64,000 nucleotides of DNA, taken from positions 192,001-256,000 of IMG/VR virus record IMGVR_UViG_3300027804_000038; one strand, given 5' to 3'. The notes under the pieces were generated by a model that worked only from the letters and a program-made list of their open reading frames with translations, searched no databases and had not been told where the DNA came from. The translations under genes and the position numbers were made by a program. How positions within the stretch are numbered: the first letter of the stretch is position 1; each line of letters opens with the position of its first letter. Positions 31,574 through 62,400 of this stretch are shown here, one piece after another. Source of the stretch: a virus (lineage: Duplodnaviria; Caudoviricetes).

Positions 31574-31925
31574 TGATACTACCAATTTCTTGCCGTAAGT
31601 TTGTAAAAGATTTGACACTTATAGGTGATGAAAGATACTCGGTAGTTAAATCAAAAAGTTCTTGTTTTATTTAGAAGATTGAAAATACTTCACGGGTGGC
31701 TCCCTTAATAGTTAAGGCTGACCTTAAACATCCACTCTAAAGTATACAGGGGGCGAAAGTGAAAAAAAATATTAATTTATTTGACAGATTGAAAAAAATG
31801 TCGTAAGTTTGTAAAAGATTTGAGATTAAGGTTCACAAAGTGGTAAAACGATGAAAGTTTCCAAATCTCAAAAAAGTTCACAAATAACTTGACAAATAGA
31901 AATAAATGTCGTAAATTTGTAAAAC
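31574..31925 (+). promoter_or_regulatory. three tandem host-type promoters, TTGA(C/T)A..GYCGTAARTTTGTAAAA
   Basis: TAnnTTTG at 31596, 31804 and 31912, each preceded by TTGA(C/T)A. Confidence 0.75.
31694..31763 (+). ncRNA. pseudoknotted RNA motif, copy 1
   Basis: shares GCTCCCTTAATAG, a CTGA-loop hairpin and AGGGGGCGAA with 45215-45290. Confidence 0.55.
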
Positions 31926-31945
31926 AATTCGGAAATGTCCGAAAC

Positions 31946-31954
31946 GTTCTTTGA
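31946..31954 (+). promoter_or_regulatory. boxA-like antitermination site
   Basis: GTTCTTTGA preceded by a small hairpin, downstream of promoter. Confidence 0.6.
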
Positions 31955-31964
31955 AAAAATAGAT

Positions 31965-36870: not shown

Positions 36871-38733
36871 ATGGGAAAAATAATAGGTATTGACTTGGGA
36901 ACTACAAATTCTTGCGTAGCGGTTATGGAAGGTAGTGACCCTGTAGTAATTACAAACAGTGAAGGAAAAAGAACCACCCCTTCAATTGTCGCATTTGCTA
37001 ATGGTGGTGAAAGGAAAGTTGGTGACCCTGCTAAACGACAGTCGGTTACTAACCCTGATAAAACAGTGTATTCAATTAAAAGATTTATGGGAACTAGCTT
37101 TGAAGAAAGTAAAAAAGAAGCTGGCAGAGTCCCATACAAAATTATAAATGGTAACAATACACCTAAAGTTGAAATTGATAAAAGAAATTACTCACCACAA
37201 GAAATTTCGGCAATAGTACTCCAAAAGATGAAACAAACTGCTGAGGACTATCTTGGACAAGAAGTAACTGAGGCTGTAATTACGGTACCTGCATATTTTA
37301 ATGACGCTCAAAGACAAGCGACAAAAGAAGCTGGTGAGATTGCAGGACTTACAGTAAGAAGAATCATAAACGAACCAACTGCCGCGGCTCTTGCGTATGG
37401 TTTAGATAAGAAATCTAAAGATATGAAAGTTGTAGTATTTGACTGTGGTGGTGGTACTCATGATGTATCCGTACTTGAACTTGGAGACGGTGTATTTGAA
37501 GTACTCTCAACTGATGGAGACACTCATCTTGGTGGTGACGACTTTGACCAAGCAATTATTGATTGGTTAGTTATGGAATTTAAAGATGAAAATGGATTGG
37601 ATTTAAAACAAGACCCAATGGCACTTCAAAGACTTAGAGAAGGAGCTGAAAAGGCAAAAATTGAACTTTCATCATCACCGTCAACTGAAATTAATTTACC
37701 ATATATCATGCCAGTTGATGGAATACCAAAACATTTAGTACGTACTCTATCTCGAGCTAAATTTGAACAATTAGTTGACGAATTAGTTAAAAGAACAATT
37801 AAACCATGTGAGTCGGCTTTAAAAAATGCAGGACTTAAAGTTTCTGAAATTGATGAAATTATTTTAGTTGGAGGTACAACAAGAATTCCTGTTATTCAGG
37901 ATGCGGTTAAGAAGTTCTTTGGAAAAGAACCGTCAAAAGGGGTTAACCCTGATGAAGTAGTCGCTTTAGGGGCGGCTATCCAAGGAGGAGTTTTAGCTGG
38001 TGATGTTAAAGATGTGCTACTTTTAGATGTCACACCACTATCACTTGGTATTGAAACAATGGGTGGGGTTTTTACAAAGTTGATTGAGGCAAACACAACT
38101 ATCCCAACCAAAAAGTCACAAGTATTCTCAACCGCTGTAGATAATCAACCATCAGTTGAAATCCATGTATTACAGGGTGAAAGAGCTATGGCTAAAGACA
38201 ACAGAACCATTGGTCGTTTCCATCTTGACGGATTACCACCAGCAATGAGAGGTATTCCACAGATTGAGGTAACATTTGATATTGATGCTAACGGTATTAT
38301 TAATGTGTCGGCATTGGATAAAGGAACCAATAAACAACAAAATATTCGAATCGAATCTTCTTCAGGACTTTCAAAAGAAGAAATTGAAAAAATGAAAAAA
38401 GAGGCTGAAATGAATGCGGAATCTGATAAGAAAATTAAAGAAGAGACTGAAACAATTAACAAGGCAGATTCAGTAATTTTCCAAACCGAGAAGGCTTTAA
38501 AAGATTTAGAGGATAAAATTGGTGACGAAGATAAAAATAGAGTGATGGTTGCTTTGGAAGAATTAAAAACCGCACATCAGAATAGAGACGTAGAAAAGAT
38601 TAATTCTTCTATTGATAATGTTAATAACATCTTTCAAGGAATAAGTCAGAATATATATCAACAGATGTCAGACATTGTGAACGAAGATAAAGATGTTGAG
38701 GTAACCGATGTTGATTTTGAAGAAGTTAAGTAA
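36871..38733 (+). CDS. dnaK: DnaK/Hsp70
   Basis: [25 protein letters not shown]-like and NPDEVVA motifs; full length. Confidence 0.98.
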
Positions 38734-38740
38734 TTAATTA

Positions 38741-38766
38741 AAAACCCATCTTCGGATGGGTTTTTT
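38741..38766 (+). terminator. intrinsic terminator
   Basis: AAAACCCATC-TTCG-GATGGGTTTT. Confidence 0.85.
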
Positions 38767-38790
38767 ATTTATATTTGTAAAAAAAATAAA

Positions 38791-39360
38791 ATGAAGGTAA
38801 TATTTTTAGACCACGATGGGGTTATTTGCTTATCAAATAACTGGGGGTCACGATTTAAGAAACAAAAGAAATATAGAAAAAAATTGAGTCAATCAGTAAT
38901 GACAATGCCTCTTGATGCTCGTTTTGATAACTTTGATAAGAAAGCGATTAAGGTGTTAAATCAAATCTTGGAACAGACTGGTGCTGAAATCGTTGTTTCT
39001 TCCGATTGGAGGATTTGGTGTTCAGTTGAGGAAATGGGTGATTATTACGAAAGTCATGGAATTATCAAACGTCCAATTGATTTTACAGGTAATGTTATTG
39101 ATGAATCAAAAGTTACATGGCACCGAAATTGGGATTTGGAAGGAACAAGGAGTTTGGAAATCCAAGGTTGGTTAAAAGAACACCCTGAGGTAACACAATG
39201 GGTAGCTATTGATGATTTGAATATGGGTAAAAAAGGTCTACACTACTCAACGGAATTTGAACACGAATGGGGGTTAGATAATTTTGTACATACTCCTCTT
39301 AGAAATGAAGGTATAAAACAAGTTGGTATTAAAGAAAAAATTTTATCATTTTTAAAATAA
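38791..39360 (+). CDS. HAD-family phosphatase (Swiss-army-knife RNA-repair-like HAD)
   Basis: FLDHDGV, IVVSSDWR and WVAIDD motifs. Confidence 0.8.
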   Translation: MKVIFLDHDGVICLSNNWGSRFKKQKKYRKKLSQSVMTMPLDARFDNFDKKAIKVLNQILEQTGAEIVVSSDWRIWCSVEEMGDYYESHGIIKRPIDFTGNVIDESKVTWHRNWDLEGTRSLEIQGWLKEHPEVTQWVAIDDLNMGKKGLHYSTEFEHEWGLDNFVHTPLRNEGIKQVGIKEKILSFLK

Positions 39361-39433
39361 AAACTTAAAAATATTGACAAATAAATAAAATTTTAATACT
39401 TTTGTTAAACAGTTATATATTTAATTAAAAACA

Positions 39434-39547
39434 ATGAAACAGAACTCGATACATAACATAAGTAATCTCCCGATGAATGTGGGCCAAGCTTGGTTTGCGA
39501 TTAAAGGGCAAGATTGCCGTTGTTTAAGGGTTCTTAATGAGATGTAA
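39434..39547 (+). CDS. 37-aa leader peptide
   Basis: MKQNSIHNISNLPMNVGQAWFAIKGQDCRCLRVLNEM; follows TTGACA/TACTTTTG promoter. Confidence 0.6.
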   Translation: MKQNSIHNISNLPMNVGQAWFAIKGQDCRCLRVLNEM

Positions 39548-39609
39548 GCGTATCATCAAATATATAAAAAAAGAACCCTGAACAATTAAAAAGTTCGGGG
39601 TTTTTTTTT
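39527..39609 (+). terminator. attenuator (terminator with competing antiterminator)
   Basis: 10-bp stem 39574-39602 plus T9; AGGGTTCTT (39527-35) is perfectly complementary to AAGAACCCT (39571-79). Confidence 0.75.
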
Positions 39610-39623
39610 GATGTTACAAAACA

Positions 39624-39638
39624 GTTCTTTGACATATT
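39624..39638 (+). promoter_or_regulatory. boxA-like site
   Basis: GTTCTTTGACATATT just before first tRNA. Confidence 0.65.
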
Positions 39639-39647
39639 GGTGAATTT

Positions 39648-39689
39648 CGGGATGTAGCTCAGTTGGCTTAGAGTACGTGCTTTGGGAGC
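39648..39689 (+). pseudogene. 5' part of disrupted tRNA-Pro(TGG)
   Basis: CGGGATG acceptor strand, D arm, anticodon loop TTTGGGA, then break. Confidence 0.85.
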
Positions 39690-39730
39690 TCAAAACATGT
39701 TTTTTCGACTTTCATGATATTTATTATTAA

Positions 39731-40288
39731 ATGAATATTATGGAAATAACTAAATATGTTTTGATAGAAGTTGTAAACACTTCTAAAAGTAAATCAGAAA
39801 TACTTAAAAAGCTTGAATTGAGTGATAATGGTAGAAATAGAAATCATTTAAATAAATTAATTTCTGAATTTGGTGTTAGTTTAGATATTTTGAAAAAAAA
39901 TAAAAGAATTAATACTAAATTTATTGAAAAAGAATGCCCTGTTTGTGGTAAAATCTTTGAAACTAAAAAAACAGATAGAGAAAAAACAACTTGTTCTTAT
40001 AGTTGTTCGAACAGTTATTTTAGAAGCGGAGAAAATAATCCAAATTGGAAAGATGATAGTTACAGAACAACATGTTTTTTATATCATGAGAAGAAATGCG
40101 TAGTGTGTGGTGAAGATAAAATAATTGACGTTCATCATTATGATGAAAACAAAAAAAATAATAACAAAGAAAATTTAATTCCTCTTTGCCCAACTCATCA
40201 CATGTATTGGCACTCAAGATATAAAAATTTAATTGAAAAAACTGTTAACAACTATAGAGATGATTTCATTAAACGAGTAATGGGCTAA
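39731..40288 (+). mobile_element. HNH homing endonuclease inserted in tRNA-Pro
   Basis: CPVC/CSYSC zinc motif, CVVC...DVHH...NLIPLCPTHH. Confidence 0.85.
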
Positions 40289-40348
40289 TTGGTAAGCCGC
40301 CATATTTGGGATATGGACATCATGTGGGTTCGAGTCCCACTTATTCGA
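40274..40348 (+). tRNA. tRNA-Pro(TGG), intact, nested in the insertion
   Basis: full cloverleaf; overlaps the last 15 nt of the HNH ORF. Confidence 0.9.
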
Positions 40349-40349
40349 C

Positions 40350-40376
40350 ACGCAGGTTCGAGTCCTGTCATCCCGA
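40350..40376 (+). pseudogene. 3' part of disrupted tRNA-Pro
   Basis: T arm plus CATCCCG, complementary to 39648-39654. Confidence 0.85.
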
Positions 40377-40424: not shown

Positions 40425-40841
40425 ATGAAACATAGTATGGAAAATGGCGATAAGTCTAGAAATGGGAATCAATTAGAGTCCTATTTCATGGAAAAAACTG
40501 GATTAAAAAAAATTCAGAAGAAAGAAAAGCCTTTTTTTACTAATAGCCATGGTAAAAAACAAATTATTGATTTTGATTTTTATGTTAAAATTAATGATGA
40601 CGATGTTTACATTGATTTAACAACAACTTATAGAAGTGATAGGTTAAAACAAAAAGCATATAATGCTTTAATGTATAAATCAAAGATTAACAAACCTTGT
40701 AAATTTTATATGGGTGTTGGTAAATTAGTTGAACATGGAAAGAAAAAAAATCCTGTGTTAATTGAAGGTATTGATGGAGTATTAACAGTTGAGGATTTAG
40801 TACAAATGATTTCTAAAAGGTCAGATACTCAAGTGGTTTAA
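40425..40841 (+). CDS. PD-(D/E)xK-like endonuclease
   Basis: GNQLE...IIDFDFY...YIDLT; own promoter; overlaps tRNA-Cys. Confidence 0.55.
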   Translation: MKHSMENGDKSRNGNQLESYFMEKTGLKKIQKKEKPFFTNSHGKKQIIDFDFYVKINDDDVYIDLTTTYRSDRLKQKAYNALMYKSKINKPCKFYMGVGKLVEHGKKKNPVLIEGIDGVLTVEDLVQMISKRSDTQVV

Positions 40842-40892
40842 GGGGCCTGTCTGCAAAATAGGTATTCGTCGGTTCGAATCCGACTCTGACCT
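40819..40892 (+). tRNA. tRNA-Cys(GCA)
   Basis: cloverleaf, loop CTGCAAA. Confidence 0.9.
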
Positions 40893-40968
40893 CAAAAAAA
40901 AAATAAAAAATTTCTTTGAAATTAAAAAAATAGACGTATCTTTGTACTCACAAATAAACAATAAAAAT

Positions 40969-41718
40969 ATGATTACACTCCAAGAACTCCAATCAGTAGT
41001 ACCTTCAGTATTCAACACTCAAAAAGCTCAGAAGCTTTCTGACAAGTACACAGTTGTTCCAACCATTGACGTAGTAAATCAATTTATGCAAGCAGGGTGG
41101 GAAGTGTCAAGTGCAAAACAAGTAGGGTCAGGTGTATACGGCAAACACTCAGTTCGTCTCCGTAACTCTGAACTCCCAAAGGTAGGTGATTCTCTACTTG
41201 AGGCTATCATCACTAACTCTCACGATGGTCGTACCAAACTCCAAGTAGGAGCAGGGTTGTACCGATTGGTGTGTTCTAATGGTCTTGTAGTACCAATGCA
41301 AGAAATGGTTAACATTAACCAGCGTCACATGAACATTCAGATGGATGAAGTGAATCAAATCACAGAGAAGTTCATTCAGATATCACCAATCATTGAACGT
41401 TCAGTTAATAAAATGATTGACGTTAAAATGGATACTGAAAAGAAAATTGATTTTGTAACCAAGGCGGTTGGAATTCGTTGGAAAAATACCGAAGACATCT
41501 CAAGTATGACTCTTGAGACGATTATCGAACCTCTTCGTGGTGATGATAACAACGATACACTTTGGCATACTTTCAATGTAGTACAGGAGAAGTTGATTAG
41601 AGGTGGATTTGTAAAATCACAAGGTAAAAATGTGAGAACAGTCAAAGGGATTACTTCCCTAAATATGGACACAATGATTAATACAAAATTGTGGGAATTG
41701 GCTGAAACATACATTTAA
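40969..41718 (+). CDS. DUF932/DUF945 family protein
   Basis: SDKYTVVPT, NSHDG...AGLYRLVCSNGL, TLWHTFNVVQE, LWELAE. Confidence 0.85.
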   Translation: MITLQELQSVVPSVFNTQKAQKLSDKYTVVPTIDVVNQFMQAGWEVSSAKQVGSGVYGKHSVRLRNSELPKVGDSLLEAIITNSHDGRTKLQVGAGLYRLVCSNGLVVPMQEMVNINQRHMNIQMDEVNQITEKFIQISPIIERSVNKMIDVKMDTEKKIDFVTKAVGIRWKNTEDISSMTLETIIEPLRGDDNNDTLWHTFNVVQEKLIRGGFVKSQGKNVRTVKGITSLNMDTMINTKLWELAETYI

Positions 41719-41738
41719 TCTTTATGATTGATGTTTAC

Positions 41739-41767
41739 AAATGGTACCTCAAAAAGGTACCATTTTT
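41739..41767 (+). terminator. terminator-like hairpin inside the tRNA array
   Basis: AAATGGTACC/GGTACCATTT plus T run. Confidence 0.6.
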
Positions 41768-41771
41768 ATTT

Positions 41772-41843
41772 GGTGATGTAGCTCAGAGGTGGAGCATCTG
41801 ACTGTTAATCAGAGGGTCGGGATTTCGAAATTCCCCATCACCG
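41772..41843 (+). tRNA. tRNA-Asn(GTT)
   Basis: cloverleaf. Confidence 0.9.
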
Positions 41844-41854
41844 CAAAATTTAAT

Positions 41855-41930
41855 GACTTCGTAGCTCAGCTGGTTTTAGAGCATCGCACTTTTAATGCGA
41901 GGGTCATGGGTTCGAGTCCCATCGGGGTCA
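41855..41930 (+). tRNA. tRNA-Lys(TTT)
   Basis: cloverleaf. Confidence 0.92.
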
Positions 41931-41940
41931 CTTTTTATAC

Positions 41941-42024
41941 ACGTCAGTGGCTGAACGGCTTAGGCAACGGTCTCCAAAACCGTGAACATTATGTTCTACG
42001 TAGGTTCGAATCCTACCTGGCGTG
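41941..42024 (+). tRNA. tRNA-Trp(CCA) with long variable arm
   Basis: loop CTCCAAA; GAACATTATGTTC extra arm. Confidence 0.8.
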
Positions 42025-42031
42025 CTAATAT

Positions 42032-42106
42032 TCTCAGATAGCTCAGTTGGTTTAGAGCACTTGTCTGATACACAAGAGGTCGTGGGTTCGAGTCCCACTC
42101 TGAGAA
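42032..42106 (+). tRNA. tRNA-Ile(GAT)
   Basis: cloverleaf. Confidence 0.9.
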
Positions 42107-42115
42107 CTTAAAAAT

Positions 42116-42190
42116 GGGGGCGCATGTACCAAGGCTTGGCGAGAAACACTTGCAATGTTTCTGTGGAGGTTTCGATTATCTCCGTCTCCA
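42116..42190 (+). tRNA. tRNA-Ala(TGC)
   Basis: loop CTTGCAA, G3:U70 pair; irregular D arm. Confidence 0.8.
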
Positions 42191-42198
42191 CTAAATTC

Positions 42199-42271
42199 GC
42201 TCCAGTAACTCAGTGGTGAGAGTGTCACTCTTATAAGGTGAAAGTCGTCAGTTCAATTCTGACCTGGAGTA
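42199..42271 (+). tRNA. tRNA-Ile(TAT)
   Basis: cloverleaf, loop CTTATAA. Confidence 0.88.
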
Positions 42272-42277
42272 CTATAT

Positions 42278-42351
42278 GGCCCCTTAGCTCAGTGGTAGAG
42301 AGCGATTGTATTACAAACAATAGGTCGTGTGTTCGATTCACACAGGGGCTA
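42278..42351 (+). tRNA. tRNA-Val(TAC)
   Basis: cloverleaf. Confidence 0.88.
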
Positions 42352-42357
42352 CTCTAA

Positions 42358-42429
42358 CCCGATGTAATTCAGTGGTAGAATACTTGATTCATATCCAAGC
42401 AGTCGGTGGTTCAATTCCACCCATCGGGA
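42358..42429 (+). tRNA. tRNA with CAT anticodon (elongator Met or Ile2)
   Basis: cloverleaf, loop TTCATAT. Confidence 0.85.
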
Positions 42430-42484
42430 CAAAAAATATTTGGTGATACAATAATCTAATTGTATATTTGTACTTAAATTATAT

Positions 42485-42560
42485 GGGGTGATAGCGCAGG
42501 TGGTCAGTTCGCGTCGGTCTGAAAAACCGAAGATGTGTGGTTCAACTCCCACTCACCCCA
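42485..42560 (+). tRNA. tRNA-Phe(GAA)
   Basis: cloverleaf; own TATATTTG promoter at 42463. Confidence 0.88.
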
Positions 42561-42717
42561 CGAGGTCCTGAATTAACAGGACAACCCCCACCTCCGATAT
42601 GGCAGTCGGTCCGTTAATCCGATGAAGATGGGGTTTTTGAAAAGTGTCTCGGTAAGCTCTGACGAAAGTCAACTACGAGGTCTCGGTGGACAGAAGGCCT
42701 CTGATTCCACCCAAAAT

Positions 42718-42789
42718 GCGGGTATAGTATAATGGTTATTATGATAGCCTTCCAAGCCTTAGATGTCAGTTCGATTCTGACTACCCGCT
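42718..42789 (+). tRNA. tRNA-Gly(TCC)
   Basis: cloverleaf with weak anticodon stem. Confidence 0.82.
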
Positions 42790-42796
42790 CTTTTTT

Positions 42797-42873
42797 GGGA
42801 CATTAGTAGAGTTGGTCACAATGCCACCCTGTCACGGTGGAGGTCACGGGTTCGAATCCCGTATGTCCCGCCA
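42797..42873 (+). tRNA. tRNA-Asp(GTC)
   Basis: cloverleaf with encoded CCA. Confidence 0.92.
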
Positions 42874-42932
42874 AAAGAGGAACGACTCAGTGTAGGAGCC
42901 TCAGGGGACTGCAGCCCCACTACACTCTATAT

Positions 42933-43003
42933 TGTCCTGTAGTGAAATGGCATCACTCGACTTTTTGGCAGTCGCATTTCTGGTTCGAGTCCAGACGGGA
43001 TAA
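42933..43003 (+). tRNA. tRNA-Gln(TTG)
   Basis: cloverleaf. Confidence 0.88.
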
Positions 43004-43019
43004 CTAAAAAATTAAAACT

Positions 43020-44165: not shown

Positions 44166-44580
44166 GAAAGTTGTTATATCTTTGTTGAAGTTCTTTGAAA
44201 TTAGGAAATTAAAGTGTTTAACGGCAGATTTTGATATAAGTGTTAGAGAGGATAAAAATCTATGAAACTTATAAGACAATTAGGAAGAGTTATCTTTACG
44301 TTGGGAGCTAAAAGTGGAGATAATAAAGTATCTATAACCGTTAAACCTTTTAAAATATTGATAGTGGTTTTCCCCACTCAACGGATGTCGACAATCTAGA
44401 TTGGAATCGGAATTCATCACCATCAGCCGAGGCCTCGTAAAACTACGATTAAGCTGTTAAGATTGGGACGAGACGGGTATCCCAACACTGTCAACAATAT
44501 TGTGTTGTTCCCTTGAGAAAGGAAGATTGCGGAGATGAACAGTAAGCTCACAACACAGAGGACTTCTCATCCTCAAACAT

Positions 44581-46208: not shown

Positions 46209-46286
46209 GGTGTCTATAGTGTTAGCGGTCTAGCACGAAGGGTTGTGGTTCCTTTAGCACCAGTTCGAATCTGGTTAGACACACCA
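46209..46286 (+). tRNA. tRNA-His(GTG)
   Basis: cloverleaf, G-1, encoded CCA. Confidence 0.88.
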
Positions 46287-62321: not shown

Positions 62322-62400
62322 TATTTTATTTGACTTAATTTAAAATTATCCGTACCTTTTAAAGGTCACAAGGGTTCTTTGAAATAAAGGAGAAAATATT

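Follow-up and report, generated by a model that had tools for sequence, protein, structure and literature searches.

The window analysed here is a stretch of 64,000 nucleotides, corresponding to bases 192001-256000 of the 293,850-bp uncultured virus record IMGVR_UViG_3300027804_000038 (Caudoviricetes). DNA sequencing runs that contain it come from freshwater, lake and estuary metagenomes. The genome of this giant phage is AT-rich and carries 25 tRNA genes according to ARAGORN, plus a tRNA-His seen only by Rfam, such that only Ala is missing. The promoter type (TTG / TAnnTTTG) and the boxA-type element described below point to a Bacteroidota host. The main tRNA cluster is preceded, downstream of a gene (38791-39360) encoding a HAD domain of the 'Swiss Army Knife' RNA-repair kind (PF18143), by a leader composed of the following features, all on the plus strand.

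39374-39404 (+), promoter of the Bacteroidota type, with TTGACA (39374-39379), a 17-nt spacer and TACTTTTG (39397-39404)
39434-39547 (+), leader ORF of 37 codons (coding part 39434-39544), with an A-rich start context, no Shine-Dalgarno sequence and AAA as second codon
39441-39447 (+), segment 1 (AGAACTC, codons 3-5), predicted to pair with segment 2 and to close a long hairpin spanning almost the whole ORF
39527-39535 (+), segment 2 (AGGGTTCTT, codons 32-34), the predicted antiterminator strand, 10-18 nt before the stop codon
39541-39557 (+), small predicted 4-bp hairpin with the stop codon (39545-39547) in its loop, within a 35-nt stretch (39536-39570)
39571-39583 (+), segment 3, in which AAGAACCCT (39571-39579) overlaps the terminator 5' arm AACCCTGAAC (39574-39583)
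39593-39609 (+), segment 4, the terminator 3' arm GTTCGGGGTT (39593-39602) running into T9 (39601-39609)
39624-39640 (+), boxA-type element GTTCTTTGACATATTGG, starting with GTTCTTTGACA at 39624
39649-40376 (+), first gene behind the leader, a resident tRNA-Pro(TGG) split into a 5' part (39649-39689) and a 3' part (40350-40376) by an insert carrying an HNH ORF (39731-40288) and its own tRNA-Pro (40274-40349)
40819-43004 (+), rest of the cluster, with tRNA-Cys, a DUF932 ORF (40942-41718), then Asn, Lys, Trp, Ile, Ile, Val, Met, Phe, Gly, Asp and Gln

Parts of the leader and their significance

The promoter, the 37-codon ORF, the 10-bp terminator with T9, the pairing segments and the boxA all lie exactly where the initial annotation had placed them, and its observation is confirmed. 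Its count of 29 distinct codons for 18 amino acids is also right. These features exceed chance expectation. The pattern TTGACA-N17-TAnnTTTG occurs four times in the window against 0.11 expected, the leader RNA folds with z = -5.5, and the pairing of the upstream 110 nt with the terminator 5' arm reaches -19.4 kcal/mol (z = -5.3, P = 0.001 against dinucleotide shuffles). The terminator hairpin itself has 10 pairs and a predicted energy of -13.3 kcal/mol; a consensus terminator scan did not list it only because its loop has 9 nt, whereas the scan allows 8. Two points of the initial annotation need qualification. The perfect 9-bp pairing between segments 2 and 3 is specific to this window, and what follows boxA is not the array itself but the 5' fragment of the split tRNA-Pro, whose intact counterpart is present in L008 (related loci and contigs collected in our searches are designated L followed by a number). 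Two more ORFs and tRNA-Cys follow before the uninterrupted run of tRNAs starts at 41772.

The 17-mer GTTCTTTGACATATTGG is not specific to this leader. Mapping of primer sites showed that 49 of 81 exact hits in bacterial genomes lie in the 16S-23S spacer of rRNA operons, 250-860 nt after the 16S 3' end, in Bacteroidota such as Pedobacter, Mucilaginibacter and Chitinophaga, which supports the boxA assignment. In phage contigs it mostly stands 8-25 nt before a tRNA, also inside arrays. None of 120 bacterial loci carrying the 17-mer has a terminator directly before it followed by a tRNA, which argues against a bacterial origin of the arrangement. The other two promoters of the same type in the window, at 31889 and 54485, run through a small hairpin straight into a GTTCTTTGAAA variant, with no ORF or terminator. 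The ORF-plus-terminator is therefore an added module, inserted between an rrn-like promoter and boxA. This would be the sensible place for a regulated terminator, since a polymerase already modified at boxA would be expected to ignore it, although this last step is inference.

The leader does not correspond to any curated family that we searched. An Rfam scan at E <= 1 gave only sub-threshold, terminator-driven matches (Thr_leader, MicC and ohsC) and no T-box, riboswitch or group I intron; the best of them, Thr_leader (RF00506), scores 30.3 bits against a gathering threshold of 55 (E = 0.016) over 39533-39609, mostly the terminator. The leader peptides of the window and of L079 have no Pfam or PHROG match, and no GenBank phage holds this leader or those of L079, L160 or L104. 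Two metatranscriptomes hold contigs identical to 39657-39972, 40944-41215 and 41298-41606 but none on the leader, and as contigs they say nothing about RNA ends or levels. A second search likewise found no RNA data set holding the leader.

Conservation in close and distant relatives

A search with the upstream HAD gene brought in 80 related loci, of which 22 (15 distinct) hold the leader at 78-85% identity. In all of these the two promoter boxes are invariant while the spacer between them varies, and the 37-codon ORF is open and free of indels while the other two frames are full of stops. BoxA follows 0-14 nt after the T-run, a distance into which nothing resembling a promoter fits, and a tRNA follows boxA. 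The terminator stem is kept through one-sided G-U/A-U changes at two neighbouring pairs, CCCTGAAC/GTTCGGGG against CCCTGGAC/GTTCAGGG. Segment 2 and the first five codons are invariant even at third codon positions and are predicted to pair with each other (helix 1:2, 39441-47 with 39528-34), both in the minimum free energy fold and in the RNAalifold consensus; as this helix is invariant in the clade, it shows no covariation. The centre of the ORF varies, with three compensatory pairs in a long inner hairpin and variable apical loops. In segment 3 the purine tract changes (GAAAGACCCT, GGGAACCCT, GGAAACCCT), yet every relative keeps 7-10 bp with segment 2, with G-U pairs or one mismatch, at -14.6 to -22.2 kcal/mol and P 0.002-0.014. 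The 35 nt at 39536-39570, around and after the stop codon, are nearly invariant, with three variable positions, which remains unexplained, and the small hairpin within them shows no covariation. Evidence for coding inside this clade is only modest: dN/dS is 0.2-0.56, variable columns by codon position are 11/12/17, and remaining free of stops is unremarkable (P 0.28-0.66).

More distant loci from the same search, together with contigs found through the boxA 17-mer or through a T-run plus boxA, carry the same order of parts (promoter, ORF of 19-37 codons, terminator, boxA, tRNA) in sequences that cannot be aligned to the window. These comprise at least 13 diverged leader families in other uncultured phages; the same architecture with different sequences is seen in the leaders of L079, L075, L074 (two), L083, L151 (two), L426, L403, L104, L160, L102, L119 and L142, which stand before arrays beginning with Pro, Asn, Trp, Phe, Lys, Glu, Leu or Ser. 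The promoter TTGAC-N17/18-TAnnTTT(G/A) precedes these other leader families as well. Their peptides and terminators differ (for example AAGGCTTCGAT, CCCATCTTC, CCCGAACT, GGGACCTTT), but in each case the 3' end of the small ORF carries the matching complement of the terminator 5' arm. When the pairing of the upstream 110 nt with this arm was tested against dinucleotide shuffles in 13 families, 10 reached P < 0.05 (Fisher 7e-14). In contrast, none of 31 ordinary terminators of the window's genome did so, with a mean z of +0.2 against -3.0 for the leaders (Mann-Whitney 1.8e-7).

In these 13 families segment 2 ends between 18 nt after and 14 nt before the first base of the stop codon, and the stop lies 22-37 nt before the terminator arm, placed such that a terminating ribosome would cover segment 2. 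An ORF of the observed length is rare in shuffles of each leader (P 0.03-0.09 each, Fisher 1.5e-6), L075 and L079 differ by an in-frame indel, and all the ORFs start in an A-rich context, mostly AUG AAA. In folds of transcripts cut at the end of the terminator 5' arm, that arm pairs with segment 2 in the window and at or next to the 3' end of the ORF in 12 of 13 families. In folds made without segment 3, segment 2 or the stretch around it mostly pairs with the early ORF in the other families too, and these leaders fold with a mean z of -2.1. This is the three-helix wiring of a classical attenuator, its 1:2 helix being predicted only, kept by covariation across families. However, the families descend from about three deep lineages, so that the cross-family statistics overstate independence.

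The module does not always hold sole control. Eight further leaders have the same module, with mostly significant antiterminator pairing (7 of 9 tested leaders at P <= 0.014, the other two at 0.06 and 0.12), followed by a second promoter-like TAnnTTTG box before boxA; a TTG stands about 19 nt upstream in the three that we read. In L102 and L119 a promoter follows boxA. In some phages the attenuated promoter thus adds to a constitutive one, as with tandem rRNA promoters. Most families also share an (A/T)ACATA motif 12-21 nt after the AUG, which is read in different frames and remains unexplained. A His codon (CAT or CAC) stands at codons 4-8 in 10 of 13 families, but since the same nucleotides are read in another frame in others, we consider this a nucleotide motif and rejected His as the sensed codon.

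Leader composition and the downstream tRNAs

The initial annotation had proposed that the leader samples almost any codon, many of them GC-rich and unusual for this genome. Compared with phage genes the ORF is indeed unusual, with 29 distinct codons against 22.2 +/- 2.6 (P = 0.005) and 8 rare codons against 1.7. Nevertheless, stop-free shuffles of the same 111 nt give 27.3 +/- 1.8 distinct codons (P = 0.26), and all 11 rare G/C-rich codons lie in predicted stems. Codon diversity as a selected trait was thus rejected, as it is what the base composition gives and RNA structure alone explains the odd codon usage.

A narrower version of the proposal does get support across families, as the amino acids of the leader match the tRNAs of the array behind it. 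In 12 families with at least six visible downstream tRNAs, the fraction of leader residues whose amino acid has a tRNA in the leader's own array is 0.70, against 0.55 +/- 0.03 when arrays are permuted among families, and none of 20000 permutations reaches the observed value. In 9 of 12 families every amino acid of the array occurs in the leader (Fisher 3e-7 against proteome windows and 1.4e-3 against own-composition shuffles). The L151 contig has two arrays, each with a leader that fits its own array far better than the other's. The limited independence of the families applies here as well, and Thr codons do not follow the presence of tRNA-Thr within the close clade, where L015, L023, L033, L043 and L050 keep three Thr codons without a tRNA-Thr in the visible array. 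For this window alone the effect is weak (P 0.02 to 0.12): 25 of 36 residues fall in the array's set (P = 0.11), and all 12 array amino acids are covered (P = 0.023 against proteome windows, 0.115 against own composition). Post hoc, the leader holds all 16 amino acids of clusters 1 and 2 and lacks Thr and Tyr, whose tRNAs sit in the separately promoted third cluster (P = 6e-4), but this value should not be taken at face value. Cluster 2 also appears to have a promoter-like box and a boxA variant of its own near 44190.

A putative attenuator and its relation to known systems

With moderate confidence, we interpret this leader as a ribosome-mediated (leader-peptide) transcription attenuator, situated between a strong Bacteroidota-type promoter and a boxA element, which would gate read-through into the main tRNA cluster of the phage. 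Our analysis establishes the parts and their order, their conservation, three mutually exclusive helices at the level of predicted pairing (1:2, 2:3 and the terminator 3:4) and the recurrence of the same wiring, with other sequences, in many phages. Translation of the ORF, actual termination, any pausing, the timing and polarity of the switch, its dependence on leader translation, Nus factor binding at boxA and the nature of the signal are all inferred. In this view, a ribosome that reaches the last codons or the stop at 39545 covers segment 2, the terminator forms and transcription stops before boxA. A ribosome that lags or stalls earlier would keep the long 1:2 hairpin open and leave segment 2 free to pair with segment 3 as that is made, so that the terminator cannot form; RNA polymerase would then transcribe boxA and probably become termination-resistant for the long tRNA cluster. 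There is no run of one codon, as no codon occurs more than three times and there are no tandem repeats. Instead the leader holds at least one codon for each amino acid whose tRNA lies in the cluster, and the likeliest signal is therefore slow decoding of any of these codons. This would be a multivalent feedback from translation speed to the phage's own tRNA supply, and the phage probably makes these tRNAs when ribosomes read slowly.

The interpretation given in the initial annotation is thus partly supported: its attenuator anatomy holds, a designed sampling of almost any host tRNA is not supported as stated, and the idea of a tRNA-damage sensor switching on replacement tRNAs is pure inference. 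It is nonetheless tempting to imagine a widespread and undescribed class of multivalent attenuators, in which each phage tRNA array is preceded by a test peptide spelled in the amino acids of that array. The phage would then measure, codon by codon, whether the tRNAs of the host (or its own) are being lost, for example to anticodon nucleases or host shut-off, and would replace exactly the failing set; in contigs with two arrays, each array would have its own matching leader. The evidence does not exclude this possibility, but we regard it as tentative.

Alternative explanations appear unlikely. The structured RNA (39441-39535) could be bound by a protein, a tRNA or a small molecule that decides between the 2:3 and 3:4 helices, with the ORF tolerated but not acting as the sensor. 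The strong, conserved structure with compensatory pairs inside the ORF, the location of all rare codons in stems, the frame-independent (A/T)ACATA motif, which hints at an RNA-level signal, the nearly invariant 35-nt stretch and the modest coding signal within the clade are all compatible with such a factor-dependent or riboswitch-like leader. However, an AUG-started ORF with the same A-rich start context ends at or next to segment 2 in all 13 families despite their different sequences, in-frame indels occur, leader amino acids match the arrays, no Rfam family reaches its threshold and the variable apical loops show no conserved specifier-like loop. The polarity could also be opposite, translation as such turning the cluster on: without translation the 1:2 hairpin would hold segment 2 and the terminator would form, whereas translating ribosomes would free segment 2. 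The full-length minimum free energy fold does contain 1:2 plus the terminator, the 1:2 helix is invariant and the leader is strongly structured. Yet in folds cut before segment 4 the 2:3 pairing already wins without any ribosome in 12 of 13 families, and the placement of the stop codon would serve no purpose in this model, which we consider the least likely of the three.

A further doubtful possibility is a stand-alone small gene, encoding a 37-aa peptide or a roughly 200-nt small RNA with its own promoter and terminator, that merely lies next to the tRNA cluster, the tRNAs being made by leaky read-through or from other promoters. The complete promoter-ORF-terminator unit, the dN/dS below 1, the second promoter after the terminator in related phages and the peptide features shared across the long-leader family (a Met-Lys start, and Trp followed by Phe or Tyr in mid-peptide) could be read in this way. 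On the other hand, a stand-alone unit has no use for a sequence complementary to the 5' arm of its own terminator, a feature found in the leaders and in none of the 31 ordinary terminators. Moreover, no promoter-like sequence fits between the T-run and boxA in the window clade, the peptides of different families are unrelated in sequence and length (19-37 aa) and no protein family matches.

Why large phages carry tRNA sets, and when they use them, is an open question, for which codon-usage compensation, replacement of degraded host tRNAs and escape from anticodon nucleases have been proposed, and almost nothing is known about how phage tRNA genes are regulated. Full-text searches found no published description of trp-operon-style control of tRNA genes or phage tRNA arrays. 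A conserved translation-coupled switch in front of the arrays would show that the phage sets tRNA output by how well ribosomes are decoding, with read-through at one terminator as a simple read-out. It would also extend leader-peptide attenuation to non-coding target genes and to Bacteroidota phages, with a regulated terminator placed upstream of a boxA element.

Among known systems, the T-box leaders that sense uncharged tRNA in Firmicutes are similar in that a terminator/antiterminator switch reports tRNA status. Here, however, there is no T-box match at E <= 1, no specifier loop and no T-box bulge, and a translated ORF takes the place of a tRNA-binding stem. The antitermination leader of rRNA operons (boxB hairpin, boxA, NusB/NusE loading) shares the boxA position, as the 17-mer after the terminator is identical to the conserved spacer element of Bacteroidota rRNA operons and follows the same promoter type, after a small hairpin, elsewhere in the window. 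A literature search on such leaders returned PMC2800207, PMC3177189 and PMC10250234; text searches of the first two did not yield the boxA consensus sequence. In the phage leader a putative regulated terminator stands upstream of boxA, so that the stop-or-go decision would be taken before the polymerase could be modified; in the rRNA spacer the motif could also serve processing.

Ribosome-mediated attenuators that sense general translation trouble (the leaders of vmlR, lmo0919, bmrCD and erm-type genes, and toiL-topAI) likewise have a leader ORF without a codon run, in which any slowing of the ribosome shifts the RNA to the antiterminator form and switches on a gene that relieves the translation problem. 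A literature search on this topic returned PMC12421871 and PMC11282234. These systems respond to ribosome-targeting antibiotics and control resistance proteins, whereas here the output is a tRNA set and the presumed signal is tRNA supply. Finally, the leader differs from the attenuators of amino-acid operons (trpL, hisL, leuL, thrL, pheL and the multivalent ilvGMEDA leader) in lacking a run of regulatory codons, one defining feature of the classical family, in preceding tRNA genes of a phage with a predicted Bacteroidota host instead of genes for biosynthetic enzymes, in having a predicted 1:2 helix that encloses nearly the whole ORF, and in the boxA element that follows the terminator. It shares with them a short ORF in the 5' leader, here putatively translated, three mutually exclusive helices, of which 1:2 is here only predicted, an intrinsic terminator before the genes presumed to be regulated and a stop codon placed so that a finishing ribosome would mask segment 2, and it is closest to the ilv type in that several amino acids are represented rather than one.

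Conserved nucleotide stretches within the leader

A nucleotide motif, (A/T)ACATA, lies 12-21 nt after the AUG of the leader ORF, at 39452-39457 in the window and at the same place in 12 other leader families. It is read as His (CAT) in 10 of 13 families but as Asn-Ile (AAC ATA) in others, and it is therefore frame-independent. In addition, 35 nt at 39536-39570, comprising the last four codons, the stop and 23 nt beyond, are nearly invariant in 15 relatives that otherwise differ at 15-20% of positions, as only three of these positions vary. This stretch forms the loop of the proposed antiterminator.

Genes upstream of and within the tRNA cluster

The following genes lie just upstream of the leader, within the tRNA cluster or further along the window:

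36871-38733, full-length Hsp70/DnaK-like ORF, with its own terminator at 38740-38765
within 36871-39360, HAD phosphatase of the RNA-repair 'Swiss Army Knife' family (PF18143, 1.4e-23)
39649-39689 and 40350-40376, two fragments of the resident tRNA-Pro(TGG)
39731-40288, HNH endonuclease ORF
40274-40349, complete, divergent tRNA-Pro
40425-40841, 138-aa ORF without a family
40942-41718, DUF932 protein (PF06067, 3.6e-27)
46210-46283, tRNA with the anticodon GTG (His) and an extra 5' G

The resident tRNA-Pro(TGG) is split after its anticodon loop (39649-40376). The insert is the HNH endonuclease ORF, whose last codons overlap the divergent tRNA-Pro, and about 5-8 nt of the old gene are missing between the two fragments. 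The intact counterpart is in the locus L008. The DUF932 gene and the 138-aa ORF are protein genes lying inside the tRNA cluster, whereas close relatives have tRNA-Asn directly after boxA instead. The tRNA at 46210-46283 was found by Rfam (53 bits) but not by ARAGORN; with it, the phage lacks only a tRNA-Ala.

Contigs from two metatranscriptome libraries of different studies match 39657-39972, 40944-41215 and 41298-41606 without a single difference, and both contigs on the first stretch start at 39657. However, as these are contigs only, they are no proof of transcription.

Further promoters and boxA-type elements

We noticed further promoters of the same TTGAC-N17/18-TAnnTTTG type, followed by a small hairpin and a GTTCTTTGAAA variant of boxA:

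31781-31956, promoter at 31889, preceding a long structured RNA and tRNA-Met
about 44176-44200, promoter of this type
54485-54552, promoter at 54485, preceding the Leu/Thr/Glu/Tyr cluster
62330-62384, promoter at 62374, preceding a protein gene

In phages, the 17-mer GTTCTTTGACATATTGG recurs inside tRNA arrays, often just before tRNA-Gln, and it may act as boxA, as a processing signal or as both (viral loci L166-L197 and L108-L161). The same 17-mer is a conserved piece of the 16S-23S spacer of many Bacteroidota (bacterial loci L198-L277), and the further promoters of the window, with their small hairpin and boxA variant, look like rRNA-operon leaders.
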